This document shows positions 36,770 to 49,676 of a stretch of DNA of 64,000 nucleotides, one piece after another. How positions within the stretch are numbered: the first letter of the stretch is position 1; every line of letters begins with the position of its first letter. The notes beneath the pieces were generated by a model. That model had not been told where the DNA came from. It saw nothing but the letters and a program-made list of their open reading frames with translations, and did no database searches. The stretch is from Alphaproteobacteria bacterium. GTDB taxonomy: Bacteria; Pseudomonadota; Alphaproteobacteria; UBA6615. The stretch covers positions 1,889,151 through 1,953,150 of the forward strand of contig OZ253937.1 in NCBI GenBank assembly GCA_965267185.1, written 5' to 3'. A program made the translations under genes and the position numbers.

Positions 36770-37252
36770 ATGCAATTCTCTTCAAATACCGTGAAACGCA
36801 CTCTCGGCGTCGCCGCTGTTATTGCCGTTGGCGTTGCCTTCGGCACCATTGGCACCAGCCCGTCCGATGCGCAGATGAGTGAACTCACCAAGCAACGCGT
36901 CGCCGCTATGAAATCGATGGGCGGCAACATGAAGAAGCTCGGCGGCGCCGTTGCCAGCGGCGACAATGCGGCAGCAGCAGCAGCAGCTACAGAGATCAAC
37001 AATGTCGCGAAAGCAATCGCATCGGTATTTCCGGAAGGCAGTGGCACCGGGGAAACCAGGGCGAAACCGGAGATCTGGCAAGACTTTGCAGACTTCACCG
37101 CAAAGGCAAATGCCCTGGATGCAGCATCAGCGAAAGTGATCGCCGATGCCAACGCCGGTAATTTGGGCAGCGATCCTAAAGCGGTTGTAGGGTCAATCGG
37201 CCAGAATTGCGGTGCTTGCCACAAGGTTTACCGCGTGCCGAAGCAGAACTAG
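36770..37252 (+). CDS. Class II cytochrome c (cytochrome c'/c-556 family)
   Basis: Signal peptide, a four-helix-bundle-length protein (160 aa), and a single C-terminal haem site CGACHKVYR. Met-rich N-terminal helix. Confidence 0.75.
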   Translation: MQFSSNTVKRTLGVAAVIAVGVAFGTIGTSPSDAQMSELTKQRVAAMKSMGGNMKKLGGAVASGDNAAAAAAATEINNVAKAIASVFPEGSGTGETRAKPEIWQDFADFTAKANALDAASAKVIADANAGNLGSDPKAVVGSIGQNCGACHKVYRVPKQN

Positions 37253-37276
37253 TACACGCACGTCTTGGGAGGACAA

Positions 37277-37310
37277 CGGCCGCCAGGAATTTTCCCGGCG
37301 GCCGTTTTTC
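37277..37310 (+). terminator. Rho-independent terminator between the two cytochrome genes
   Basis: cggccgcc-aggaattttccc-ggcggccg followed by TTTTT, immediately after the cytochrome c' stop. Confidence 0.5.
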
Positions 37311-37323
37311 CTTATAAAGCGTT

Positions 37324-38190
37324 ATGCGTTTGATTTTGTTAGCAACCCTGCTCCTACTATCGCCAGCCGGGCAAGATGCAGCTCTCGCGGCAAGCGCGGG
37401 CAATGCCGAACGCGGGGCTTACATTCTTCGTGTCGCCGGTTGCGGCTCCTGTCATACGGCTCCAAAAGGGGGCCAATTTCTCGCCGGCGGGCGCGAGCTC
37501 AAATCGCCGTTTGGGTCTTTTTTTTCACCAAACATCACAAGCGACGCGGAAACCGGCATCGGCAAGTGGAGCGACGAGGATTTCGTACGGGCCCTGCGCG
37601 ATGGCAAGTCGCCCGACGGAAAACCCTATTACCCTTCCTTTCCCTACACGTCGTACACGCGTATGACCCGCGAAGACATGGTCGATCTAAAGGCCTATCT
37701 CGATACGGTCGAACCGGTGAGCAAGCAGGTGCCCGACCACGATCTCCGCTTCCCCTTCAGCGTGCGGACGGGCATGCATGTATGGCGCACGCTGTTCTTC
37801 GATAAGGATCCGCTGTCGCCCGATCCGGCGCAAAGCGAAGCCTGGAACCGAGGCGCCTATATCGTGAACGGCCCCGGACATTGCGGCGAGTGCCATACCC
37901 CACGGAACATACTCGGCGGTCTTAAACAAAGTCGCGCCTTATCCGGAAATCCCGAGGGTCCCGACAACGAGCCCGTCCCGAACATTACCGGCCATCCCCG
38001 ATTGGGCATTAAGGATTGGAGCATCGACGACGTGGTGTCGTTTCTGCAGATCGGCATCAAGCCGGATGGCGATTTTGCCGGTGGAGCAATGACCGATGTG
38101 ATCGACGACGCGACGGGCAAACTCACCGAAGCCGATCTAACTGCGATCGCCACCTACCTCAAGTCGCTGCCGGCTATCCCTGCACCGTAG
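37324..38190 (+). CDS. Dihaem c-type cytochrome
   Basis: Signal peptide and two CxxCH motifs (CGSCH, CGECH) in a 288-aa protein. There are no extra Cys, so it is not TsdA-like. Confidence 0.75.
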
Positions 38191-39295
38191 CGGCCGCGTG
38201 GGTAGCGCGCTCGGGAAACAATGCCGATAAACCCTCCGCGCTGGCCGGACAGATGCCGCGCTCGGTGATCAATCCGCTGACCAGCCGTGCAGGTGTTGTA
38301 TCGAAGGCATAGTTCGCCGCCGACGTGCCATCGGGTGCCAGCTGGACGGTGGCAATATCGCCGCCAGGCAAGCGGCCGGTAATGTGAGTGACTTCCATCT
38401 CGTCGCGCTGCTCGATGGGGATATCGCGCACCCCATCGCTCAATGTCCAATCGATGGTCGGCGACGGCAGCGCCACGTAGAATGGAACGTTATTGTCGCG
38501 CGCTGCCAACGCCTTCAAATAAGTACCGATCTTGTTGGCTACGTCACCATGCGCAGTCGTGCGGTCGGTGCCGGTGATACATAGATCGACCATGCCATGC
38601 TGCATCATGTGACCGCCGGCATTATCCGCAATCACCGCATGGGAGACACCGTGGCGGCCGAGTTCCCACGCGGTCAGCGCCGCTCCTTGGTTGCGGGGGC
38701 GGGTTTCGTCGGCCCATACATGAACCGGGATACCAAGGTCATGCGCCTTGTAGATCGGCGACAGCGCCGTACCCCAGTCGACAGTGGCCAACCAGCCAGC
38801 ATTGCAGTGAGTTAGCACGTTAACCGGCCCATCCTCGCCCGCGGCCGCATAAGCCTCTCGTATCAAAGCAAGGCCATGGTCGCCGATAGCGCTGTTTATC
38901 GCGACATCTTCATCGCAAATTTTGGCAGCACGCCGGTACGCCAGTTCGGCGCGCGCGTCGTGGGGTTGGTTGCGGAGGAGAGCGCGCATATCGTCTAATG
39001 CCCAGCGCAGATTGACCGCCGTTGGCCGCGTCGCCATCAGCGCGTCGTAGGCCGCGTCGAGAGCGGCGTCGGACGCATCGTCGCGCATTGCCAGTGCAAC
39101 GCCATACGCCGCCGTCGCGCCGATCAGTGGCGCGCCGCGAACCATCATGGTTTTGATCGCTGTGGCAACGGCTTCCACCGACGTCAAAGACACGACTTCG
39201 AAGCGATGAGGCAGCTGAGTTTGATCGATAATTTGAACCGTCCAGCCGTCATCGTCGCACCAAATGGTGCGATAGGCAGTACCGTCGACTTTCAT
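38174..39295 (-). CDS. mtnA: S-methyl-5-thioribose-1-phosphate isomerase
   Basis: [70 protein letters not shown] matches the MtnA/eIF-2B-related family; 373 aa. Its 3' end overlaps the convergent cytochrome gene by 17 nt. Confidence 0.85.
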
Positions 39296-39326
39296 CGTTT
39301 ATTCCCCAAGCCCGTCAATACGTACC

Positions 39327-39548
39327 TCATCCCGCTTTGCTGATGACGAATGTCAACACGCCATCGTCCTCGGTCGCGCTCTCGAGCGTGTCGCCCGTCG
39401 CGTCACAAAAATTGTGGAAGTCCTTCATGGCGCCGGGATCGGTGGCAATCACCGTCAGCCGGTCTCCTGCCGATAGACCCTTGAGAGCCTTTTTGGCTTT
39501 TAACACCGGCAAAGGACATTTGAGTCCCGACGTGTCGAGTACGTCCAT
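39327..39548 (-). CDS. tusA: TusA-family sulfurtransferase
   Basis: LDTSGLKCPLPVLKAKKALKGLSAGDRLTVIATDPGAMKDFHNFCD... carries the CPxP active-site motif. The start is chosen at MDVLD (73 aa); the longer ORF-track start is possible. Confidence 0.75.
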   Translation of the reverse strand: MDVLDTSGLKCPLPVLKAKKALKGLSAGDRLTVIATDPGAMKDFHNFCDATGDTLESATEDDGVLTFVISKAG

Positions 39549-39632
39549 ACGTCTGCTCGTTCGAGTCACTCTAGGTTGACTCATAGTGCGGTTATCGGGC
39601 GCCGCCGCAACCCCCATCTGGCGTTATCTCGA

Positions 39633-39662
39633 TTGACCGTTTTTCTAATATGCGAATATACT
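39633..39662 (+). promoter_or_regulatory. Putative promoter (TTGACC-18-TATACT) of the ArsR-family regulator gene, with an embedded TTTC-N8-GAAT operator-like dyad (39642-39657)
   Basis: Read from the sequence. The -10 ends ~7 nt before the ATG at 39669, suggesting a leaderless mRNA, and no SD is visible. The dyad resembles the ATTC-N8-GAAT box reported for SqrR. Confidence 0.35.
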
Positions 39663-39668
39663 AATTTT

Positions 39669-40022
39669 ATGGATATCCACGGGCTCAAAGAAAAATCAGC
39701 GCAAGCGAGCCGCCTGTTAAAGTCGTTGGCGAACGACAGACGGTTGCTGATTCTTTGTCATTTGAGCGAGAGTGAAAAATCCGTCGGCGAGCTGGAGCGG
39801 TTGGTCGACCTCAGTCAGTCAGCGCTATCGCAACATCTTGCACGGCTACGCCGCGACGATCTCGTGCAAACGCGCCGCGAAGCCCAAACGATCTACTATT
39901 CAATTGCCAGTCTTGAGGCTGGTGAGGTTCTAAAAACCCTGTACAAGCTTTACTGCGCCGACGATGCGCCGACCACCCGGCCCACCGCCGCCGCTGGACG
40001 GCGCAGCGCGTCGGGTGTTTGA
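39669..40022 (+). CDS. ArsR/SmtB-family transcriptional repressor, SqrR/BigR-like (persulfide-sensing type)
   Basis: Winged-HTH core (SVGELERLVDLSQSALSQHLARLRRDDLV). The only two Cys residues are at positions 30 and 96, a 66-residue spacing identical to the Cys41/Cys107 (SqrR) and Cys42/Cys108 (BigR) redox pair. It is divergent from tusA and upstream of rhodanese/TauE. Confidence 0.65.
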   Translation: MDIHGLKEKSAQASRLLKSLANDRRLLILCHLSESEKSVGELERLVDLSQSALSQHLARLRRDDLVQTRREAQTIYYSIASLEAGEVLKTLYKLYCADDAPTTRPTAAAGRRSASGV

Positions 40023-40090
40023 GCCGATAAATCACCACAGGGCCTCCAAGACAACGCCGATATCAACACAAACCCAAAGGCCCTACGAAA

Positions 40091-40426
40091 ATGACACAGC
40101 AAGTCACGTTCCTGGAACCGGCAGAGGTACAGGCCAAACTCACCGACGGTACGGCCTATGTCGTTGACGTACGCGAGCCGCATGAATATGCCGAAGCACA
40201 TATCGCCGGCGCCGTTCTCATGCCGCTATCACAGTTTGATCCAAGCAAAATCTCACCTCCGGAAGGTAAGAACCTGATCTTCCATTGCCGCAGCGCTCAA
40301 CGCTGCGGCGTGGCCTCCGAACAGCTAATCGCTGCAGGCTACAAAGGCGCAATCTATCGCATGGCCGGCGGCCTCCTCGCCTGGACGGCGGCGGGGTTAC
40401 CGGTGGAGAGCGGCGCAAACGACTAA
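40091..40426 (+). CDS. Single-domain rhodanese (thiosulfate/persulfide sulfurtransferase)
   Basis: 111 aa with an active-site Cys loop (IFHCRSAQRCG). Confidence 0.8.
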   Translation: MTQQVTFLEPAEVQAKLTDGTAYVVDVREPHEYAEAHIAGAVLMPLSQFDPSKISPPEGKNLIFHCRSAQRCGVASEQLIAAGYKGAIYRMAGGLLAWTAAGLPVESGAND

Positions 40427-40466
40427 GGCCAACAATCACGACGTCCGGGCGATTTCACGTTAGCCA

Positions 40467-41393
40467 ATGAATATCTACCTGCCCATTGCTGAAATGTCGG
40501 TCGATGTTTTCCTGATCCTTGGATTGGGGGGCGGCATCGGATTTCTGTCCGGGTTATTCGGCGTCGGTGGCGGGTTCTTGATGACACCACTACTAATTTT
40601 CATCGGCATACCACCCGCGGTGGCCGTAGCCAGCGAGGCAAACCAAATCGTCGCTGCGTCGGTCTCTGGTGCGCTCGCACATATGCGGCGCGGTAACGTC
40701 GATATCAAAATGGGCCTGATCCTGACCGCTGGAGGCTTTGCGGGATCCGGCGTTGGGGTGTTGATTTTCACGCTGCTGCGCCAACTCGGGCAGGTCGAAC
40801 TGCTGATCGCGCTAAGTTACGTGGTATTTCTCGGTGCCATCGGTTTGTTGATGCTGATCGAAAGCGGCCGGACCATGCTGCGGCACCGGGCTGGCACGGC
40901 AACCAGAGGCAAGCTGCACCAGCATACATGGCTGCACGGACTACCCCTGAAAATGCGGTTTCGCCGCTCGCGCCTCTACATCAGCGCGCTCCTGCCGATC
41001 GGTATCGGTTTCTTCGTCGGTATTCTGGCGGCCATCATGGGTGTCGGGGGCGGATTCATCATGGTGCCGGCGATGATTTACCTGCTCGGAATGCCGACCG
41101 CCGTCGTTGTCGGCACTTCTTTATTCCAGATCATTTTTGTCACCGCCAACGTAACCTTCTTGCAAGCGACCACTAATCAGACCGTCGATATCGTGCTGGC
41201 GCTATTGCTGCTCACCGGCGCCGTGATTGGCGCCCAGTTGGGAACGAAGGCGGGCGGCTTGTTGCGCGGCGAACAACTGCGCGGTCTGCTGGCGCTTATC
41301 GTTCTCGGCGTCTGCGCCAAGATTGCCTACGATCTCGTATCGACCCCGTTTGATATCTTCTCGATCAGCGAAATCTCAGGATTTGGCGGATGA
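40467..41393 (+). CDS. TauE/SafE-family (DUF81) sulfite/anion exporter
   Basis: 308 aa with duplicated 4-TM halves, each carrying a GGGxxxxP-like motif (GVGGGFLMTPLL and GVGGGFIMVPAM). Confidence 0.8.
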   Translation: MNIYLPIAEMSVDVFLILGLGGGIGFLSGLFGVGGGFLMTPLLIFIGIPPAVAVASEANQIVAASVSGALAHMRRGNVDIKMGLILTAGGFAGSGVGVLIFTLLRQLGQVELLIALSYVVFLGAIGLLMLIESGRTMLRHRAGTATRGKLHQHTWLHGLPLKMRFRRSRLYISALLPIGIGFFVGILAAIMGVGGGFIMVPAMIYLLGMPTAVVVGTSLFQIIFVTANVTFLQATTNQTVDIVLALLLLTGAVIGAQLGTKAGGLLRGEQLRGLLALIVLGVCAKIAYDLVSTPFDIFSISEISGFGG

Positions 41394-42157
41394 GAAACCT
41401 TCATCACACAATATTGGCTATGCTCCTGTTTGTGGGAGTCGCGGCGGCACCGGCACAAGGTCAAACACCAACCCTCGCGTCGTCGCCTTTGGTAGCAGAC
41501 CTCAGCGAAGATCTCATCGCAATCACAACCGGATTTACCGGCACCGAAGTCTTGCTGTTCGGAGCGACCGTGGGTTCCGGCGAAATCATTGTTGTCGTCA
41601 AGGCGCCGGAAAGCCAGGTCGTTGTGCGCCGAAAAGAACGGGTCGCCGGTGTGTGGATCAACGCCGATAGCCTAACTTTCGACAAAGTGCCCGGATTTTA
41701 TCATGTCGCCGCTTCGCAGCCTCTGACCGATCTATTGCCGGAAGCGACCTTGAAAAGTGAACAAATCGGTGCCGAGAATTTGTCGTTGGAGTCTGTATCG
41801 CCAACGTCGGCCGCAGAGTTCGCTCTATTTACCGAAGCATTGATCCGTAACAAGAAGAGAACAGATCTCTTCAATGAACAGCTTGGCGAGATCAAGTTCC
41901 TCGGTGACCGGCTATTCCGTACTCAGGTACAACTCCCGTCAAACGTACCGACGGGCGCTTACACAGCAACGGTATATCTGGTGGACAAGGGAGAGATCAT
42001 CGACCGCACCGACACGCTGCTGCAAGTTCGAAAATCGGGCTTCGAAGCCAAAGTGTTCGAGTTCGCCAATCAAAATGCGGCGATCTACGGTATCATTGCC
42101 ATTCTTATTGCATTGGCGGCGGGATGGTTTGCCGGCATTGTCTTCCGAAACGTCTGA
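41390..42157 (+). CDS. TIGR02186-like alphaproteobacterial membrane-anchored protein (conserved partner of DUF81)
   Basis: Signal peptide plus a C-terminal TM (IYGIIAILIALAAGWFAGIVF). It overlaps tauE by 4 nt, indicating translational coupling. The family name is recalled from memory. Confidence 0.5.
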   Translation: MRNLHHTILAMLLFVGVAAAPAQGQTPTLASSPLVADLSEDLIAITTGFTGTEVLLFGATVGSGEIIVVVKAPESQVVVRRKERVAGVWINADSLTFDKVPGFYHVAASQPLTDLLPEATLKSEQIGAENLSLESVSPTSAAEFALFTEALIRNKKRTDLFNEQLGEIKFLGDRLFRTQVQLPSNVPTGAYTATVYLVDKGEIIDRTDTLLQVRKSGFEAKVFEFANQNAAIYGIIAILIALAAGWFAGIVFRNV

Positions 42158-42164
42158 CGCCGTT

Positions 42165-42695
42165 ATGACCGATCAAACGACAACCGAACCAGCAAATGCC
42201 GCGCCGGACGACCGGCGCCCCGAAGTGAGCCAACCCAATGTTTTTCTTGTGGTGGCGGACAACACGCGGGAGATGCAAGTGGCGCTGCGTTTCGCAAGTC
42301 TTCGCGCGAAACGCACTGGCGGCCGCGTCGGTCTACTGCGTGTTGTACGCAAAGCCGACTTTCAGCATTGGGCGGCGATCGGCAACCTGATGCGCGAAGA
42401 AGCGCGCGATGAGGCCGAACAGTTGCTGCAAGAACATGCGGCAACGGTCACCGAGTTAACCGGCGGCGAGATGCCGATCCTCTACATCAAAGAGGGCGAC
42501 ACCAAGTCGGCTCTTCTCGAGCTGATCGATGAAGACGCGCAGATTCGTATTCTGGTTCTCGCCGCCGCCACGGGGACACGCGGGCCGGGACCCCTTATTA
42601 CGTTCCTGATGAAAAAGATAATCGGCAAGCTGCGCATCCCGGTCACGATTGTGCCCGGAGGACTCACCAACAATCAGATCGATACGCTGACTTAA
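42165..42695 (+). CDS. Universal stress protein (UspA-domain)
   Basis: VFLVVADNTREMQVALRFA...ILVLAAATGTRG is a UspA-like Rossmann fold. The start is chosen at MTDQTT; the longer ORF-track form overlaps the upstream gene. Confidence 0.6.
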   Translation: MTDQTTTEPANAAPDDRRPEVSQPNVFLVVADNTREMQVALRFASLRAKRTGGRVGLLRVVRKADFQHWAAIGNLMREEARDEAEQLLQEHAATVTELTGGEMPILYIKEGDTKSALLELIDEDAQIRILVLAAATGTRGPGPLITFLMKKIIGKLRIPVTIVPGGLTNNQIDTLT

Positions 42696-42707
42696 GCCCT
42701 AACCCGA

Positions 42708-45653
42708 TTGCGTGCCTTCATGCCCGACCAAACGAGAAGCGTAAACTCGCCCGAGATTATCGATACCTCGCCGCCGGTTGCCGACGAGATCAAAACCACC
42801 ACGTGTTACATGTGCGCCTGCCGGTGCGGCATCAACGTCCACCTCCGCGACGGGGCGATCCGCTACATCGAGGGCAACCGCGACCATCCGGTCAACAAAG
42901 GCGTTTTGTGCGCCAAAGGATCGGCCGGCATCATGCAGCACTATTCGCCGGCCCGGCTGTCCAAGCCGTTGAAGCGGGTGGGTCCGCGCGGCTCCAACGA
43001 GTTCGTTGAGATCGAGTGGGAGGAAGCCTTGGCGACCGCCACGGCATGGCTCACCGAAGTTCGCCGCTCAGACCCACGCAAGCTGGCTTTTTTCACCGGA
43101 CGCGATCAAAGCCAAGGGTTGACCGGGTTCTGGGCGAGCCAGTTCGGCACGCCTAACTACGCGGCCCATGGCGGCTTTTGCTCCGTTAATATGGCCGCCG
43201 CCGGGCTCTACACTATCGGCGGATCGTTCTGGGAGTTCGGCGAGCCGGACTGGGAACGAACGCGTTACTTCTTGATGTTCGGCGTTGCCGAGGATCACGA
43301 TTCCAACCCCATCAAAGCCGGGCTCGGCAAACTAAAAGGAAAAGGCGACGCCAAATTCGTCTCCGTCAACCCGGTGCGCACCGGCTACTCCGCCGTCGCC
43401 GACGAATGGATTGGTGTACGGCCCGGAACGGATGGCTTATTCGTTCTGGCGCTGGTTCACGAGCTTCTGCGGGCCGGACAAGTCGATCTCGCGTATCTGG
43501 TGCGCTACACCAACGCGCCATGGCTGATCTATGAAGCACCGGGCGAGGCTCATGATGGGCTGTTCGTGCGCGATGCCGACGGCAATCCCCTGGCGGTCGA
43601 CAAAAACACCGGAAAACTCGTCAGCGCGTTGGCCGCCGACATTGCCCCTGCGCTGCAAGGTAAATTCGATCTAGCTGAACTCGACGGTGTCGATAGCGAT
43701 ATCAGCGGGCTGGCTGTGCCGGCTTTCCAGCAGTTACTCGACCGCTATAGCGATCCGCAATACGCACCGGAGGCGGTTGCCGCGCAAACTGGCGTCGACG
43801 CCGATACGATCCGCCGCATTGCGGCAGAGCTCGCCCACGCCGCCTTTCAGCAGACGATCGAGATCGACACGCCGTGGACCGACTGGGCTGGCCGCCGTCA
43901 TGACAAAATGATCGGCCGGCCGGTGGCGATGCACGCAATGCGCGGCATCTCCGCCCATTCGAATGGCTTCCAGACCTGCCGGGCGATCCACATGTTGCAG
44001 ATGCTGCTTGGCAGCATCGATTGCCCCGGCGGTTTTCGCTACAAGCCGCCCTTTCCAAGGCCGGCGCCACCCGGACCGAAGCCAGCGGGCCGCGGTGAGC
44101 AGATCGCCGCCGAAACGCCGATGCCCGGACCGCCGCTCGGTTTCGTCACCGGTCCCGAAGATCTTTTGGTCGAAGCCGACGGACGGCCTTCGCGTATCGA
44201 CAAGGCCTTTTCGTGGGAGTACCCGCTGGCCGCCCACGGCATGATGCATCTGGTGATCCGCAACGCGTGGGCGCGCGATCCCTACCCCATCGATGTGCTG
44301 TTCATGTTCATGGCCAACATGAGCTGGAACTCGGCAATGAACACCGCCGAGACCATCGAAATGTTGACCGACATCGATCCCGACACCGGCGAATACCGCA
44401 TCCCCAAGATTATCTACTCGGATGCATTTTCCTCCGAGATGGTGCCTTACGCCGACCTCATCCTGCCCGACACCACCTATCTGGAGCGGTGGGACTGCAT
44501 CAGCTTGCTCGACCGGCCGATCTGCGATGCCGACGGACCGGCGGACTCGATCCGCCAACCGGTTGTTGCTCCTGACCGCGACGTGCGGCCCTTCCAGGAT
44601 GTGCTGATCGATCTCGGCGCACGCCTGGGCCTCCCCGCGTTTGTCGATGAGGCCGGCAGCGCCCGTTATCCCGGCGGCTATCCCGACTACATCGCCAACC
44701 ATGAACGCACGCCAGGTATCGGTCCGCTGGCCGGATGGCGCGGCGCCGACGGAACATCGCACGGCCGCGGCGAAGCAAATCCTGACCAGCTATCCCGCTA
44801 TATTGAGAACGGTTGCTTCTGGCGCGACGAGTTGGCGCCCGATCAGCGCTACTTCAAGTTCGCCAACCAAAGCTACTTGCAGTATTCGGCCGACATGGGC
44901 TGGATTCCCGATGCCAATCAAATAATCCTGCAGCTCTACAGCGAACCGCTGCAGAAGTTTCGCCTGGCCGCGCAGGGACACGGGCCCCACCAGCCGCCCG
45001 GCTCGCACCGCGAGCGGCTCGAGACCTTCTTCGATCCGTTGCCGATCTGGTACGCACCCTTCGAGGAGGAATTCAGCACGGACGAATCCTATCCGATACA
45101 CGCGCTCACCCAGCGGCCGATGGCGATGTACCATTCGTGGGGGTCGCAAAACGCTTGGCTGCGGCAAATCCATGGCTGGAACCGGCTCTTTGTTCATGCT
45201 GACACAGCCCGCGACGCGGGACTCGCCGATGACGACTGGGCGTGGATCGAGAGCCCCTATGGTCGCGTCAAGGCGCAGATCAAATGCATGACGGGCTGCA
45301 ACCCAGCGACCGTGTGGACGTGGAACGCGATCGGTAAGCGCCGCGGTAGTTGGAATCTCGACGACAACGCACCGGAATCACGTCGCGGCTTCCTCCTCAA
45401 TCATCTGATCACCGATCTGCTGCCACCGAAAAACGGCCATCGCTACGCCAATGCCGATCCGATCACCGGACAGGCGGCCTGGTTCGACTTGAAGGTGCGC
45501 TTGAGCAAAGCGGAACCCGGCGAAGCGGAAGAAAGCGAACCTGTATTCCCGGTCCTGGAAGAATTACCCAACACCAAGAAACGCCCCGCAATCTTACGCT
45601 ACGGTGAACGCTTCCTGCCTACCGGCGACTGGCGGCGGAGGCGGGCGTCATGA
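42708..45653 (+). CDS. soeA: Molybdopterin (bis-MGD) oxidoreductase catalytic subunit without a Tat signal; SoeA-like sulfite dehydrogenase candidate
   Basis: 981 aa. N-terminal 4Fe-4S motif CYMCACRCG...C in a DMSO-reductase-family scaffold. No twin-arginine leader. Followed by the Fe-S and membrane-anchor subunits. Confidence 0.55.
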   Translation: MRAFMPDQTRSVNSPEIIDTSPPVADEIKTTTCYMCACRCGINVHLRDGAIRYIEGNRDHPVNKGVLCAKGSAGIMQHYSPARLSKPLKRVGPRGSNEFVEIEWEEALATATAWLTEVRRSDPRKLAFFTGRDQSQGLTGFWASQFGTPNYAAHGGFCSVNMAAAGLYTIGGSFWEFGEPDWERTRYFLMFGVAEDHDSNPIKAGLGKLKGKGDAKFVSVNPVRTGYSAVADEWIGVRPGTDGLFVLALVHELLRAGQVDLAYLVRYTNAPWLIYEAPGEAHDGLFVRDADGNPLAVDKNTGKLVSALAADIAPALQGKFDLAELDGVDSDISGLAVPAFQQLLDRYSDPQYAPEAVAAQTGVDADTIRRIAAELAHAAFQQTIEIDTPWTDWAGRRHDKMIGRPVAMHAMRGISAHSNGFQTCRAIHMLQMLLGSIDCPGGFRYKPPFPRPAPPGPKPAGRGEQIAAETPMPGPPLGFVTGPEDLLVEADGRPSRIDKAFSWEYPLAAHGMMHLVIRNAWARDPYPIDVLFMFMANMSWNSAMNTAETIEMLTDIDPDTGEYRIPKIIYSDAFSSEMVPYADLILPDTTYLERWDCISLLDRPICDADGPADSIRQPVVAPDRDVRPFQDVLIDLGARLGLPAFVDEAGSARYPGGYPDYIANHERTPGIGPLAGWRGADGTSHGRGEANPDQLSRYIENGCFWRDELAPDQRYFKFANQSYLQYSADMGWIPDANQIILQLYSEPLQKFRLAAQGHGPHQPPGSHRERLETFFDPLPIWYAPFEEEFSTDESYPIHALTQRPMAMYHSWGSQNAWLRQIHGWNRLFVHADTARDAGLADDDWAWIESPYGRVKAQIKCMTGCNPATVWTWNAIGKRRGSWNLDDNAPESRRGFLLNHLITDLLPPKNGHRYANADPITGQAAWFDLKVRLSKAEPGEAEESEPVFPVLEELPNTKKRPAILRYGERFLPTGDWRRRRAS

Positions 45654-46408
45654 CGAGCCTGCCCAAAACGCCACCGGAGAAAAAGCTCGGTCTGGTGATC
45701 GACCTGGATACCTGCGTCGGTTGCCACGCTTGCGCGGTGAATTGCAAGGAATGGAACACGGGCGGCCATTCAGCCCCCCTCACCGATCTCGAACCTTATG
45801 GCGAAGATCCTCACGGTGTCTGGTTCAATCGGATCCACACGTTCGAAGCCGGCGAAGGAGCGCAGGGGCGCACCGTGCATTTTCCCAAGAGCTGCCTGCA
45901 CTGCGACGAGCCGGCCTGCGTGACCGTATGCCCCACCGGCGCGTCCTATAAGCGCGAAGAAGACGGCATCGTTTTGGTCAATGCCGACACCTGCATCGGC
46001 TGCAAACTCTGTTCATGGGCATGCCCCTACGGCGCACGCGAGTATGACTACACCGATGGGGTGATGAAGAAATGCACCCTGTGCATCGACCGCATCTACA
46101 ACGAGAACCTCGAAGAAGAGGACCGGGTACCCGCCTGCGTATCCACCTGCCCCGCCTCGGCCCGTCATTTTGGCGACCTGGGCGATCCGAACTCCGAGGT
46201 GTCGCAGCTGGTGCGCGAGCGCGGTGGCTATGACCTGATGCCCGAGATGGAGATGCAGCCGGTCAATAAATATCTGCCGCCGCGGCCAACAAAAACAACA
46301 GCCGGCGACACCGGCGCGCCCGCTGCCTTGCCCGGTGATGCGTCTGAAACCGTCGATACAACGGGCCACGGTTTCCTGGCCTGGGTCGACCGGGCGCTGT
46401 CGCGTTAG
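45650..46408 (+). CDS. soeB: 4x[4Fe-4S] ferredoxin-type subunit (DmsB/PsrB/SoeB-like)
   Basis: Four Cys clusters (CVGCHACAVNC; CLHCDEPACVTVCP; CIGCKLCSWACP; CTLCIDR...C). Overlaps the A subunit by 4 nt. Confidence 0.6.
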   Translation: MTSLPKTPPEKKLGLVIDLDTCVGCHACAVNCKEWNTGGHSAPLTDLEPYGEDPHGVWFNRIHTFEAGEGAQGRTVHFPKSCLHCDEPACVTVCPTGASYKREEDGIVLVNADTCIGCKLCSWACPYGAREYDYTDGVMKKCTLCIDRIYNENLEEEDRVPACVSTCPASARHFGDLGDPNSEVSQLVRERGGYDLMPEMEMQPVNKYLPPRPTKTTAGDTGAPAALPGDASETVDTTGHGFLAWVDRALSR

Positions 46409-46425
46409 CATCGGGTTCGTTCGCC

Positions 46426-47373
46426 GTGCATCCCGCCTACTCGGTCATTTTTTTCACAACAGCGTCCGGCGCAGGTTATGGGCTGTTGGTCTGGCTCGCT
46501 GTTGGGACCATTTTTTTCGACCTGCCGTCCGATCGCTGGTTCGGATTTACCTCCTTCGCCGTCGCGCTAGTCCTGATTACTTTTGGGCTACTCTCATCGA
46601 CCTTCCACCTGGGTCATCCGGAACGGGCCTGGCGGGGACTGACCCAGTGGCGGTCGTCGTGGCTATCGCGCGAAGGCGTCGCAGCGGTCCTCACTTACAT
46701 TCCCGCTGGGCTTGCCGCGATCGGCTGGGTGTTCCTGACCCGCAACGATGGCGTGTGGGCCTGGCTGATGGCAGCCGCCGGGATACTGGCAATCGTCACC
46801 GTGTATTGCACTGCGATGATCTATCAAAGTCTGCAGGCCATACCGCGCTGGAACACGCCTTGGGTGACGCTGGTCTATCTCGGATTCGCCCTGGCCAGTG
46901 GAGCGTTGCTGTTCCATCTCGGGGTCCGCGCCTTCGGTCTCGATCTCGTTGGCAGCGGTTGGGCCGCGGCGGCTCTGACGGCCGCTGCCTGGATCGTAAA
47001 ACTGATCTACTGGAACAGAATCGACCGCGCTCCCGCTAGGTCGACAGCGGAGACGGCCACCGGATTGGGACATCTCGGTAGGGTTCGTCTATTCGAGGCG
47101 CCGCATACCGGCGACAATTACCTGATGCGCGAAATGGGCTACAAGGTCGCCCGCAAGCACGCAACACGACTGCGCATCATCGCGCTCATCCTGGGTGGCG
47201 CGATACCAGTGATTCTGGCCGTGGCGGCCACTCAACTATCTGACCCGGCCGCGGTGCTGGTGGGATTGCTGGCTGTTTTGTCGGCAGGTGCGGGATTGCT
47301 CGTCGAACGCTGGCTGTTTTTTGCCGAGGCGGTTCACGCGGTGTCGCTCTATTACGGCATGGACTCCGCTTAG
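46426..47373 (+). CDS. soeC: DmsC/NrfD-type membrane anchor subunit (SoeC-like)
   Basis: 315 aa with ~8 TM segments. HPERAWRGLTQWRSSWLSREG is a typical DmsC-family loop. Confidence 0.6.
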   Translation: MHPAYSVIFFTTASGAGYGLLVWLAVGTIFFDLPSDRWFGFTSFAVALVLITFGLLSSTFHLGHPERAWRGLTQWRSSWLSREGVAAVLTYIPAGLAAIGWVFLTRNDGVWAWLMAAAGILAIVTVYCTAMIYQSLQAIPRWNTPWVTLVYLGFALASGALLFHLGVRAFGLDLVGSGWAAAALTAAAWIVKLIYWNRIDRAPARSTAETATGLGHLGRVRLFEAPHTGDNYLMREMGYKVARKHATRLRIIALILGGAIPVILAVAATQLSDPAAVLVGLLAVLSAGAGLLVERWLFFAEAVHAVSLYYGMDSA

Positions 47374-48143
47374 ACCGCCAACGACGGCATCTGGATAGGG
47401 CCGTCGATCAGTTGATTGACGAACTGGTGGACGTAGGCATTGTCGGTCGCTTCGAGTTCGTCAATTGAGCCCTGCCAAACGATGCGGCCTTCATGAAGCA
47501 TCGCCACCCGCTCGGCGATCTTGCGCACGACAGCCATATCGCTCACGACCGAGATAATCGTCGCGCCGAGCTCGCTTTCGCGTTCGATAATGAGTTCGCT
47601 GATGATGTTGCTCATAATCGGGTCGAGACCGGCGGTCGGTTCATCGAGGAAAATGATCTCCGGGTCGGTCGCGATCGCCCGGGCTAATCCCGCGCGCTTT
47701 TGCATACCTCCCGACAGTTCGGCGGGATATAGGTCTGCCGTATCCGCGGTGAGGCCGGCCGAGCCGAGCTTTTCGATGGCCCGCGCCCGCGCCGTCGAGT
47801 TATCTACTGCCGGGTCCTGCAAGAGCCGGAAAGCCACATTCTCCCAGACGGTCAAACTGTCAAACAGGCCTTGCCGCTGAAACAGCACACCGAAGCGGCT
47901 CATCCAGGCCATTCTTTCGTTCTCCGACAGGCCGACGGAGTCTTGCCCATCGATTTCGACCCGGCCGGAGTCCGGTGGCACCAGTCCGAGAATAGTTTTC
48001 AGCAGTAGCGATTTTCCGCTGCCCGAGCCGCCAATCAGGACCAGCGACTCTCCGGCGGCAACATCGAGCGAAATGCTATCGAGCGCGCGGTAGCCATCGA
48101 ACGTCTTGCAGACATCGATCAGGCGAATCTTCGGCGTTGTCAT
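47370..48143 (-). CDS. ABC transporter ATP-binding protein, MlaF/Ttg2A-like
   Basis: Walker A GGSGSGKS, signature LSGGMQKR, Walker B IIFLDEPT; 257 aa. No permease or MCE partner is adjacent. Its stop overlaps the convergent soeC stop. Confidence 0.8.
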   Translation of the reverse strand: MTTPKIRLIDVCKTFDGYRALDSISLDVAAGESLVLIGGSGSGKSLLLKTILGLVPPDSGRVEIDGQDSVGLSENERMAWMSRFGVLFQRQGLFDSLTVWENVAFRLLQDPAVDNSTARARAIEKLGSAGLTADTADLYPAELSGGMQKRAGLARAIATDPEIIFLDEPTAGLDPIMSNIISELIIERESELGATIISVVSDMAVVRKIAERVAMLHEGRIVWQGSIDELEATDNAYVHQFVNQLIDGPIQMPSLAV

Positions 48144-48176
48144 GCGCTTCTTATGGCGCCTGCCCGTGAGTCGGCC

Positions 48177-49676
48177 CTACTGCATCGTCGGCATGGTCAG
48201 GCTATGGCCTTCGCGTACGCCGGACTTTGGCCAGCGCGACGTTATTGCCTTAAGGCGCGTGTAGAACCGCACGCCTTCCATGCCATGCATGTGGGTGTCG
48301 CCGAACAGTGACCGTTTCCAGCCGCCGAAACTGTGATAAGCGACCGGAACCGGGATCGGCACGTTGACGCCAACCATGCCGATTTGAACCCGCTCGGTGA
48401 AATCGCGCGCGGCATCACCGTCCTTGGTAAAGATGGCCGTACCGTTGCCATATTCATTGCGGTTCACCAGATCGACGGCGCTCTCGTAGTCGGGCGCTCT
48501 TACGACCGACAGAACGGGGCCAAAAATCTCTTCCTTGTAAATCGACATGTCTTCGGTTACGCGGTCGAACAGGCTGCCGCCCAAGAAGTAGCCGTTCTCA
48601 TAGCCTTGCATTTTGAAGTCGCGGCCATCGAGTACGAGTTCGGCTCCCTCCTCGACGCCCTTGTCGATCAATCCCTTAATCCGGTTGTAGGCTTGTTCGG
48701 TGACGACGGGTCCCATTTCGATATCGGGATCGCCGCCTGGGCCGATCTTTAGCTCCTGAACGCGCGGTACCAAGTTCTCGACCAGACTATCGGCAGTCTG
48801 ATCGCCAACGGCGACGGCGACCGAGACGGCCATGCAACGCTGGCCCGCCGACCCGTAACCGGCTCCGATCAGGGCGTCGGCTGCTTGGTTCATGTCGGCG
48901 TCGGGCATGACCACCATATGGTTCTTGGCGCCGCCCAGCGCCTGAACGCGCTTACCGCTCGCCGCCGCAGTCGAATAGATATAGGACGCCACCGGGGTAG
49001 AGCCGACGAACGATACCGCCGAGATGTCGGGGTGCGTGAGGATGGCGTCGACCGCCTCCTTGTCGCCGTTGACCAGATTGACGACCCCATCGGGCACGCC
49101 GGCCTCTTTGGCAAGCTCGACCAGCCGCAGCGGACAGGAAGGATCGCGCTCCGAAGGCTTCAAGATGAAGGTGTTGCCGCACGCGATCGCCAGGGGGAAC
49201 ATCCAAAGCGGGATCATCGCGGGGAAATTAAAGGGTGTGATACCCGCACATACACCGACCGGTTGGCGGATCGAAAACGCATCGACCCCCGTGCCGACGT
49301 CTTCGGTAAAGTCGCCCTTCAGCAAATGGGGTATACCGCACGCGAACTCGACCACCTCGCGGCCGCGCGTAATGTCGCCTTTGGCATCTTCGATCGTCTT
49401 ACCGTGTTCCGTCGTAATCAGCTCTGCCAGCTCATCGATGTGCTGCAGAATGAGTTCGTTGAAGCGGAACATAACGCGCGCGCGCCGCAGCGGCGGCAAT
49501 GCCGACCATTCGGGCAGCGCTGCCTGAGCGGCTTTGACGGCGCTATCGACGTCCGCCGAGCTGGCCAGCCGAACCTCGGCGACCTGTTCCCCTACCGCCG
49601 GATTGAAGACCGGTCCGGTTCGCGTCGACTGCCCGTCGACAAGCTCGCCGTTTATCCAATGTGATAGCGACTTCAT
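48177..49676 (-). CDS. mmsA: Methylmalonate-semialdehyde dehydrogenase (CoA-acylating)
   Basis: 499 aa ALDH-superfamily protein with the MmsA-type catalytic region (...GQRCMA...) and N-terminus MKSLSHWINGELV. Confidence 0.85.
   Translation of the reverse strand: MKSLSHWINGELVDGQSTRTGPVFNPAVGEQVAEVRLASSADVDSAVKAAQAALPEWSALPPLRRARVMFRFNELILQHIDELAELITTEHGKTIEDAKGDITRGREVVEFACGIPHLLKGDFTEDVGTGVDAFSIRQPVGVCAGITPFNFPAMIPLWMFPLAIACGNTFILKPSERDPSCPLRLVELAKEAGVPDGVVNLVNGDKEAVDAILTHPDISAVSFVGSTPVASYIYSTAAASGKRVQALGGAKNHMVVMPDADMNQAADALIGAGYGSAGQRCMAVSVAVAVGDQTADSLVENLVPRVQELKIGPGGDPDIEMGPVVTEQAYNRIKGLIDKGVEEGAELVLDGRDFKMQGYENGYFLGGSLFDRVTEDMSIYKEEIFGPVLSVVRAPDYESAVDLVNRNEYGNGTAIFTKDGDAARDFTERVQIGMVGVNVPIPVPVAYHSFGGWKRSLFGDTHMHGMEGVRFYTRLKAITSRWPKSGVREGHSLTMPTMQ

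Follow-up and report, generated by a model that had tools for sequence, protein, structure and literature searches.

The 64,000-nucleotide stretch of alphaproteobacterial contig OZ253937.1 analysed here (the window, to which all coordinates refer) contains an arsR-family regulator gene at 39669–40022 on the plus strand, an open reading frame (ORF) of 117 amino acids with its stop codon at 40020–40022 included. Upstream, across an intergenic region of 120 bp, lies a divergent gene for a tusA-like sulfur carrier (39327–39548, minus strand; 73 amino acids with a CPLP motif; Pfam TusA, E 7.6e-22), and downstream lies a gene for a single-domain rhodanese (40091–40426, plus strand; 111 amino acids with the active-site loop CRSAQR; Pfam Rhodanese, E 2.8e-16). 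The regulator belongs to a well-known family and is itself uncharacterised. We propose, with a probability of roughly 0.65, that it is a two-cysteine persulfide-sensing repressor which acts on an operator within its own promoter and heads a leaderless operon for sulfur handling.

The regulator and its cysteine pair

The 117-residue product is, judged by its profile matches, a protein of the ArsR/SmtB winged-helix superfamily, scoring 48.1 bits with Pfam HTH_5 (PF01022; cut-off 22) and 78.6 bits with the NCBIfam ArsR/SmtB subfamily NF033788 (cut-off 55). When the solved relatives were ranked by phmmer against PDB sequences, the best was HlyU (E 1.8e-27), with R. capsulatus SqrR (E 1.3e-23), NolR (E 2.3e-19), E. 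coli YgaV (chain 3cuo, E 4e-19) and, at the sixth rank, Xylella BigR (3pqj, E 7e-18) behind it. The metal sensors (CzrA, SmtB and CadC-type) reached E 1e-7 or worse, which is 20 orders of magnitude weaker than HlyU. Over 96 residues, the regulator is 55% identical to the HlyU of V. vulnificus and 53% to that of V. cholerae; its identity to SqrR is 47%. The recognition helix covers residues 49–60 (SQSALSQHLARL; 39813–39848, plus strand). It overlaps the segment LSQSALSQHLA (residues 48–58), which is shared exactly with both HlyU structures and has RQAAVSQQLA as its equivalent in SqrR; Q50 to L57 are invariant across 44 homologues. The relatives of the regulator come from metagenome-assembled genomes of Alphaproteobacteria. 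Following C96, residues 97–117 (39957–40019) form a tail of 21 residues rich in Ala, Pro, Thr and Arg, which has no sequence conservation and low model confidence and is missing from HlyU, SqrR and most relatives.

The translation holds exactly two cysteines, C30 in LLILCHL (codon TGT, 39756–39758, plus strand) and C96 in KLYCADD (codon TGC, 39954–39956, plus strand), which lie 66 residues apart as the first-pass annotation had read them and would be the first and second sensing cysteines in helices α2 and α5. That annotation had also matched this spacing to C41/C107 of SqrR and C42/C108 of BigR, and the alignment bears out the equivalence. In gap-free printed alignments, C30 falls on the α2 cysteine and C96 on the C-terminal sensing cysteine of SqrR and the two HlyU structures. 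In the case of BigR, the equivalence was taken from coordinate ranges: the ungapped ranges (query 6–99 to 3pqj 6–99) imply that C30/C96 correspond to C42/C108, a numbering that we checked through a Xanthomonadales-type homologue (L036). The published YgaV peptides ILC31ML and KNVYC98P (PMC9774250) likewise make the pair equivalent to C31/C98 of YgaV.

The first cysteine is present in 280 of 281 relatives in a MAFFT alignment, a cysteine stands at the C96 position in 254 and both occur in 253; in the 44-sequence alignment, both are invariant. Among the 281 close relatives, 28 (Sneathiella, Micavibrio and some Thalassospira, including L011, L013, L015, L018, L020, L024, L032–L035, L039, L040, L043, L068 and L070) keep the α2 cysteine and have A, V, L, S, G or D in place of the C-terminal one. 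Such one-cysteine relatives cannot form an intraprotomer bridge, and they may sense something else or nothing.

The ArsR cluster to which all known persulfide sensors of this type belong is defined by a cysteine pair in α2 and α5, and its members co-localise with rhodaneses and sulfur transporters (PMC10509353). The clade corresponds to sequence similarity network (SSN) cluster 4, with SqrR, BigR, HlyU, YgaV, PigS, SoxR and sHdrR; all of these except PigS are described as having a common cysteine pair and rhd and TauE genes nearby (PMC12423496). The regulator shares these traits. Its cysteines stand at the defining positions, its translation carries neither an α3 CXC motif nor an α5 His/Asp metal site (its only histidines are H4, H31 and H56, none of them in α5), and its neighbours include a sulfurtransferase and an anion transporter. 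Considering these traits, it is very likely a two-cysteine reactive-sulfur (persulfide) sensor of the SqrR/BigR/HlyU/YgaV clade; the persulfide chemistry and its specificity are what we infer for this protein.

Promoter, translation start and candidate operators

The TTGACC-18-TATACT promoter of the first-pass annotation was recovered by the promoter scan, with the −35 hexamer TTGACC at 39633–39638 and the −10 hexamer TATACT at 39657–39662 on the plus strand, separated by 18 nt. It is the only 10/12 sigma-70-like match on either strand within 38000–48300. Promoter-like matches were no more numerous in this region than in shuffles, and it is conservation in 11 orthologous loci that raises the promoter and the operator above chance. 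We aligned the tusA–arsR intergenic region of the window with that of ten orthologues (11 loci) and calculated the mean pairwise identity of each segment. The identity was 42% beside the tusA start (39549–39581), 60% in the stretch that separates two conserved blocks (39613–39630), 95% from the −35 hexamer through the last base before the ATG (39631–39668) and 82% in codons 2–5 (39672–39683), and the 22 bases through the ATG at 39650–39671 (ATGCGAATATACTAATTTTATG) were 100% identical. Both TTGAC and TATACT are invariant in the 11 orthologues. In three more distant orthologues TTGAC is kept, the −10 hexamer stands at the equivalent place with a different sequence, and the layout reads TTGACC-N18-TAGACT, 7 nt, ATG (L001), TTGACC-N18-TACACT, 7 nt, ATG (L084) and TTGACA-N18-TAGGCT, 8 nt, ATG (L083).

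Between the −10 hexamer and the ATG (39669–39671, plus strand) there are 6 nt (AATTTT), close to the 7 nt or so first supposed, and no purine-rich Shine–Dalgarno (SD) sequence. The spacing, which falls in the 5–9 nt range taken as typical of leaderless starts, stays at 6–8 nt in 16/16 syntenic orthologues, none of which has an SD sequence. A second clade of homologues has TTGACN-N16/17-TAAATT, 7 nt, ATG. Leaderless-type promoter geometry was found at 16 of 150 distinct homologue starts, in two separate clades, compared with 0.7% of 12,203 control ATGs (about 15-fold); a canonical SD sequence precedes none of these 16 starts, one of which has merely a GAG triplet. Based on the spacing, the missing SD sequence and the orthologues, the ATG is the predicted transcription start to within 1–2 nt, and a leaderless regulator mRNA, as the first-pass annotation suggested, is likely. 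About 7% of the transcripts of the alphaproteobacterium Methylorubrum are leaderless (PMC9320726), which makes the arrangement credible and not exotic.

A four-codon ORF at 39651–39665 (ATG CGA ATA TAC TAA) was rejected as a gene, as it sits within the promoter and its ATG is ATA in L001, L083 and L084; among the 11 close orthologues it does not vary, and it almost certainly arises as a side effect of the operator and −10 sequence. An Rfam scan of 39000–40600 returned nothing meaningful, its sole match (E 0.99) being far under the gathering score.

Within the promoter lies the dyad TTTC-taatatgc-GAAT at 39642–39657 (TTTC at 39642–39645, GAAT at 39654–39657), which agrees at 7/8 positions with the published SqrR box ATTC-N8-GAAT (bioRxiv 10.64898/2026.05.15.721447). 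A literature search for a BigR box found none, and the A. baumannii BigR paper reports no operator sequence, so we derived a family-wide box, ATATT[C/A]-N8-[G/T]AATAT, from the regions upstream of homologues, 152 distinct ones in all. In these regions, five nested dyads (ATAT-N12-ATAT, TATT-N10-AATA, ATTA-N8-TAAT, ATTC-N8-GAAT and ATTAG-N6-CTAAT) are 9- to 200-fold over background, and the family box is matched at 10/12 or better in 59/152 upstream regions versus 16/1229 background segments. The whole 64-kb window has just five such positions. Two of them are the candidate operators described below, and the other three (26756, 36333 and 59378) lie within coding regions and were dismissed as chance. 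When the local 30-mer, which is 80% A+T, was shuffled, at least one such site arose in 3% of shuffles and at least two in 0.04% (P = 0.0004).

The candidate operator Box A, TTTTTC-taatatgc-GAATAT (39640–39659, unstranded), matches the family box at 10/12 and encloses the TTTC-N8-GAAT dyad. Its arms are near-invariant in the 11 close orthologues, where only the outermost base, 39640, varies (T/A); the other changes within the box, 39646 T/G and 39649 T/C, both fall in its spacer, and the latter weakens the left arm of Box B. The match of Box A declines to 9/12 in L001, 8/12 in L084 and below 8/12 in L083. The candidate operator Box B, ATATGC-gaatatac-TAATTT (39648–39667, unstranded), is offset from Box A by 8 bp, also matches at 10/12, overlaps the −10 hexamer and ends 2 nt before the ATG. 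It is the better conserved of the two in distant orthologues and is found at 9–10/12 in all six syntenic orthologues of the initial set, among them L001, L084 and L083. A weak third register, Box 0 (ATTGAC-cgtttttc-TAATAT, 39632–39651, unstranded), overlaps the −35 hexamer and is found at 9/12 in the window and in all six orthologues, although this conservation may simply mirror the −35 hexamer. Box 0 lies 16 bp from Box B, an offset that resembles the tandem boxes, 15–16 bp apart, read in other clade members including L154.

A family-type operator very probably sits downstream of the −35 hexamer and ahead of the ATG, in the register of either box. Candidate boxes between −35 and +1 are in the position of a repressor site, as footprinted for YgaV, where the footprint covers the −35, the −10 and the start region of the ArsR–rhodanese operon ygaVP and sulfide abolishes binding (PMC9774250). 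It is likely that the regulator represses its own promoter.

In other clades, the family box runs across the start codon, one example being AAATTA-GCAAACAT-GAATAT with the ATG within the spacer, and GAATAT then gives the last base of codon 1, the whole of codon 2 and part of codon 3. Start-spanning boxes of this kind were seen in L030, L031, L060, L066/L142, L144, L145, L157, L109, L154, L038, L067 and L071. Since the operator is partly coding in these clades, their N-terminus M-N-I is constrained by it.

Neighbouring genes and the tusA side

The rhodanese gene follows arsR directly in all syntenic orthologues. Beyond it on the plus strand are genes for a TauE/SafE-family anion exporter (40467–41393; Pfam TauE, E 1.4e-46), syntenic and 81–97% identical in the orthologous loci, for a TIGR02186/Alph_Pro_TM membrane protein (41390–42157; Pfam PF09608, E 8e-79; syntenic), whose start overlaps the tauE stop, and for a protein of the universal stress protein (Usp) family (42183–42695; Pfam Usp, E 2.3e-9; syntenic in L001 and L004). 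After a gap of 12 nt, on the same strand and without a strong promoter between, comes a SoeABC-like three-gene set (42708–47373; Pfam Molybdopterin, Molybdop_Fe4S4, Fer4_11 and DmsC). It encodes a 981-residue molybdopterin oxidoreductase without a twin-arginine signal, a 4Fe-4S (Fer4_11) subunit and a DmsC-type anchor. The best NCBIfam match is PhsA, under its cut-off, and by its architecture the set looks like SoeABC, the cytoplasmic sulfite dehydrogenase. It is possibly the distal part of the arsR operon. Homologues of about 60% identity lie near arsR relatives in L006, L016 and L019.

We compared 13 orthologous loci (L081–L084, L001 and L161–L168), whose regulators are 66–87% identical to that of the window, with L001, L084 and L083 at 66–70%. 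The layout of mtnA and tusA on one strand and arsR, rhd, tauE and the TIGR02186 gene on the other is found in 12/13 of them, the exception being L162, where mtnA is replaced by cytochrome c genes. The mtnA gene (methylthioribose-1-phosphate isomerase, methionine salvage) lies 31 nt after tusA on the minus strand (the pair covering 38174–39548), and this pairing is kept nearly throughout the orthologous loci. Just past mtnA, at 36770–38190, are genes for a cytochrome c' (PF01322) and a dihaem-type cytochrome c. Genes of these two kinds adjoin tusA in L162, and they may form one functional neighbourhood with the locus.

The divergent neighbour of arsR is tusA in every syntenic orthologue. The first-pass annotation had taken the 120-bp region to be the tusA promoter as well; the divergent gene and the length of the region were confirmed, while the tusA promoter is probably a separate block. 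A sigma-70 tusA promoter overlapping the operator was sought on the minus strand, and none with acceptable spacing was found. A second conserved intergenic block lies at 39582–39612 (CATAGTGCGgTTATCGGgCgcCGCCGCAA), with a mean pairwise identity of 80% in 11 orthologues. Within it ATAGTGCG is invariant in the 11 orthologues, and the flanks are 42–60% identical. The minus strand of this block reads TTGCGG-N18-CTATGA, where the promoter scan makes no call. The block is the better candidate for the tusA promoter, or possibly a site for another factor. The two divergent promoters appear, from these alignments, to stand back to back without sharing the operator in the window and its closest relatives.

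Alternative explanations and proposed regulation

The register of the operator could be other than that of the dyad. It is quite possible, at somewhat less than even odds, that the true operator is Box B, alone or in tandem with Box 0 at 16 bp, and that TTTC-N8-GAAT is a mere by-product of overlapping AT-rich half-sites. Besides the persistence of Box B in the distant orthologues where Box A decays, the heptamers CTAATAT and CTAATTT are retained in all six syntenic orthologues, ATTAG-N6-CTAAT is about 97-fold enriched upstream of family members, and both L154 and the TTGACN-N17-TAAATT clade have two boxes 15–16 bp apart that extend to the start codon. However, the 11 closest orthologues change at 39646 and 39649, in the Box A spacer, with damage to the left arm of Box B at 39649; the right half of Box B is the −10 hexamer and discriminator, constrained anyway, and the left arm of Box 0 is nothing but the −35 hexamer. 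A different objection concerns the mRNA, which might start at an upstream promoter or arise by read-through with an unrecognised initiation signal, or might be translated from the in-frame TTG at 39576 into a protein of 148 residues. The reading frame is open up to this TTG, versions of 145–149 residues are annotated for close homologues in some database entries (P0003, P0023, P0026 and P0028), and the frequency of promoter-like matches in shuffles does not favour the promoter. We nevertheless consider a leadered mRNA unlikely. The tusA start lies only some 9–31 nt from the −35 hexamer in L001, L084 and L083, which makes an N-terminally extended regulator impossible there, and an extension would need translation through the invariant promoter. 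The regulator also aligns without offset from residue 2 with full-length V. vulnificus HlyU (query 2–97 to chain 2–97), M1 is invariant in 44 homologues, and gene callers on eight orthologous contigs chose the 117-residue form on six, shorter forms (113 and 111 residues) on two and an upstream extension on none. The SD-free starts and the 6–8 nt spacing of the syntenic orthologues speak against a leader as well.

The signal and the role of the regulator have also been read differently. BigR and HlyU were initially proposed to sense general thiol oxidants (H2O2, disulfide stress or hypochlorite) by forming a simple disulfide or a sulfenate, earlier structural work on both proteins is cited in PMC10509353 for oxidised cysteine forms, and oxidant specificity is indistinguishable from sequence alone. 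Such sensing is improbable here, considering that every clade member examined in quantitative anaerobic assays (SqrR and HlyU) reacted with sulfane-sulfur donors only and not with H2O2 or disulfides (bioRxiv 10.1101/2020.03.22.001966; PMC10509353), and that all the neighbouring genes handle sulfur. A classical metal- or metalloid-sensing ArsR/SmtB repressor, which automatic annotation implies through the NCBIfam 'metalloregulator' subfamily model that the protein passes and through the database names of its homologues, is hardly credible: the α3 CXC motif and the α5 His/Asp cluster are missing, the only cysteines are the α2/α5 pair, the metal sensors rank at 1e-7 or worse against 1e-27 for HlyU, and no metal transporter adjoins arsR among the genes scanned. 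With HlyU as the closest characterised relative and LSQSALSQHLA in common, the regulator might instead activate distant genes, or relieve their silencing, and hardly control its own promoter, if at all. We regard this as very improbable, because the candidate boxes lie between −35 and +1, the equivalent layout of ygaVP is a footprinted autorepressor site (PMC9774250), and synteny with rhodanese and TauE genes is typical of the repressor members (PMC12423496).

Several observations weigh against a persulfide-sensing autorepressor with an operator at this place. No sqr gene and no gene for a persulfide dioxygenase (PDO, metallo-beta-lactamase) was found among the genes scanned over about 10 kb on each side. 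The BigR equivalog model (NCBIfam NF040642) scores 88.1 bits on the regulator, under its 155-bit cut-off; the regulator is, on this score, a member of the clade and not a BigR orthologue. The AlphaFold2 monomer model, made from the 44-sequence alignment, reached a mean pLDDT of 50.6 and a pTM of 0.30, too poor for cysteine geometry, and was left unused. As for the operator, ATTC-N8-GAAT with at most one mismatch occurs at 16 sites in the window compared with 25 ± 5 in shuffles, so the dyad carries no weight alone; the likeness to the SqrR box pointed out in the first-pass annotation survives as the core of Box A, at a frequency that chance alone gives and in one of two possible registers. Boxes A and B overlap by 12 bp, which excludes joint occupancy in the usual way, and the hints from conservation conflict, as variation among the close orthologues is confined to the spacer of Box A, and Box B alone survives in the distant ones. 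The invariant block could largely be explained by promoter and start-site constraints without any operator. Finally, HlyU, the nearest in sequence, is known for activating toxin genes or lifting their silencing and not as an autorepressor, whereas the boxes of the regulator are in repressor geometry.

Comparison with the known systems shows where the locus agrees with them and where it departs. V. vulnificus HlyU (3JTH/5ZNX; V. cholerae 4K2E) even has the same cysteine numbering, C30/C96, and, once persulfides have turned its cysteines into a tetrasulfide, it comes off its operator (PMC10509353). Unlike the regulator gene, however, the HlyU gene is not beside a rhodanese or TauE gene, and the candidate operator here overlaps its own −10 and start. 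Persulfide releases the repressor SqrR (6O8L and related entries). The recognition helix of SqrR, RQAAVSQQLA, differs from the SQSALSQHLA of the regulator also at the position said by the authors to contact ATTC, and SqrR has sqr and photosynthesis genes under its control as a master regulator, in contrast with a locus that has no sqr within the distance scanned. The nearest operon logic is that of E. coli ygaVP, in which a two-cysteine ArsR is followed by a rhodanese in one autoregulated operon. Its mapped leader is 28 nt (PMC9774250), compared with a −10 that ends 6 nt before the ATG here, and YgaP is anchored in the membrane, in contrast with the soluble rhodanese domain here, after which come TauE, TIGR02186, Usp and the SoeABC-like set.

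BigR (Xylella, Agrobacterium and Acinetobacter) shares the clade with the regulator and aligns with it over gap-free ranges (3PQJ). The BigR operons of Xylella also carry DUF81/TauE-type membrane proteins. A blh-type fusion of persulfide dioxygenase and rhodanese, which would be expected beside a BigR gene, is absent from the genes scanned within about 10 kb here. TauE neighbours are general among clade members (PMC12423496). SoxR and sHdrR of Hyphomicrobium denitrificans, likened to the regulator by description, are alphaproteobacterial sulfane-sulfur-responsive ArsR repressors that have the same cysteine pair (C50/C116 in sHdrR) and a connection with sulfur transferases and the export of sulfite (PMC12423496, PMC10451225). 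They regulate sox and shdr thiosulfate-oxidation clusters, none of which is in the window. The locus differs from the clade members in its likely leaderless start, its longer operon with TIGR02186, Usp and the SoeABC-like set, and its tail of 21 residues.

Taken together, we propose that the reduced dimer of the regulator would bind the pseudo-palindromic AT-rich operator, Box A and/or Box B, which lies in its own promoter between the −35 hexamer and the ATG, and would thereby block RNA polymerase. When sulfane sulfur builds up, a polysulfide bridge would form between C30 and C96 within one protomer and the protein would come off the DNA. Transcription would then begin at the A of the ATG, or within 1–2 nt of it, and yield a leaderless mRNA for the regulator, the rhodanese, the TauE-type anion exporter, TIGR02186 and Usp, probably together with the SoeABC-like cytoplasmic sulfite-oxidising complex. 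In this scheme, the repression, the box that is bound, the exact transcription start and the extent of the operon are what we infer.

The gene that databases label a 'metalloregulator' can with confidence be given the predicted function of a reactive-sulfur-responsive autorepressor, and this label extends to a conserved sulfur-handling locus of seven to ten genes in mostly uncultured Alphaproteobacteria. A catalogue of uncharacterised family members beside rhd and TauE genes already exists (PMC12423496), and the regulator and its locus leave the current understanding of the ArsR persulfide-sensor family unchanged. It is a speculative and rather doubtful idea that the roughly 40 near-invariant bp at 39631–39671 combine promoter, operator and translation start as a selected design, present in at least two clades of two-cysteine ArsR proteins, that ties the sensor and first gene of the operon to SD-independent translation, with a regulon reaching a SoeABC-type sulfite dehydrogenase. 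If true, it would connect the sensing of persulfide with the oxidation of sulfite in uncultured Alphaproteobacteria from marine and groundwater habitats. The compact system of about 40 bp itself bears on how ArsR-type persulfide sensors pick between overlapping operator registers and on how repression acts on a leaderless promoter.

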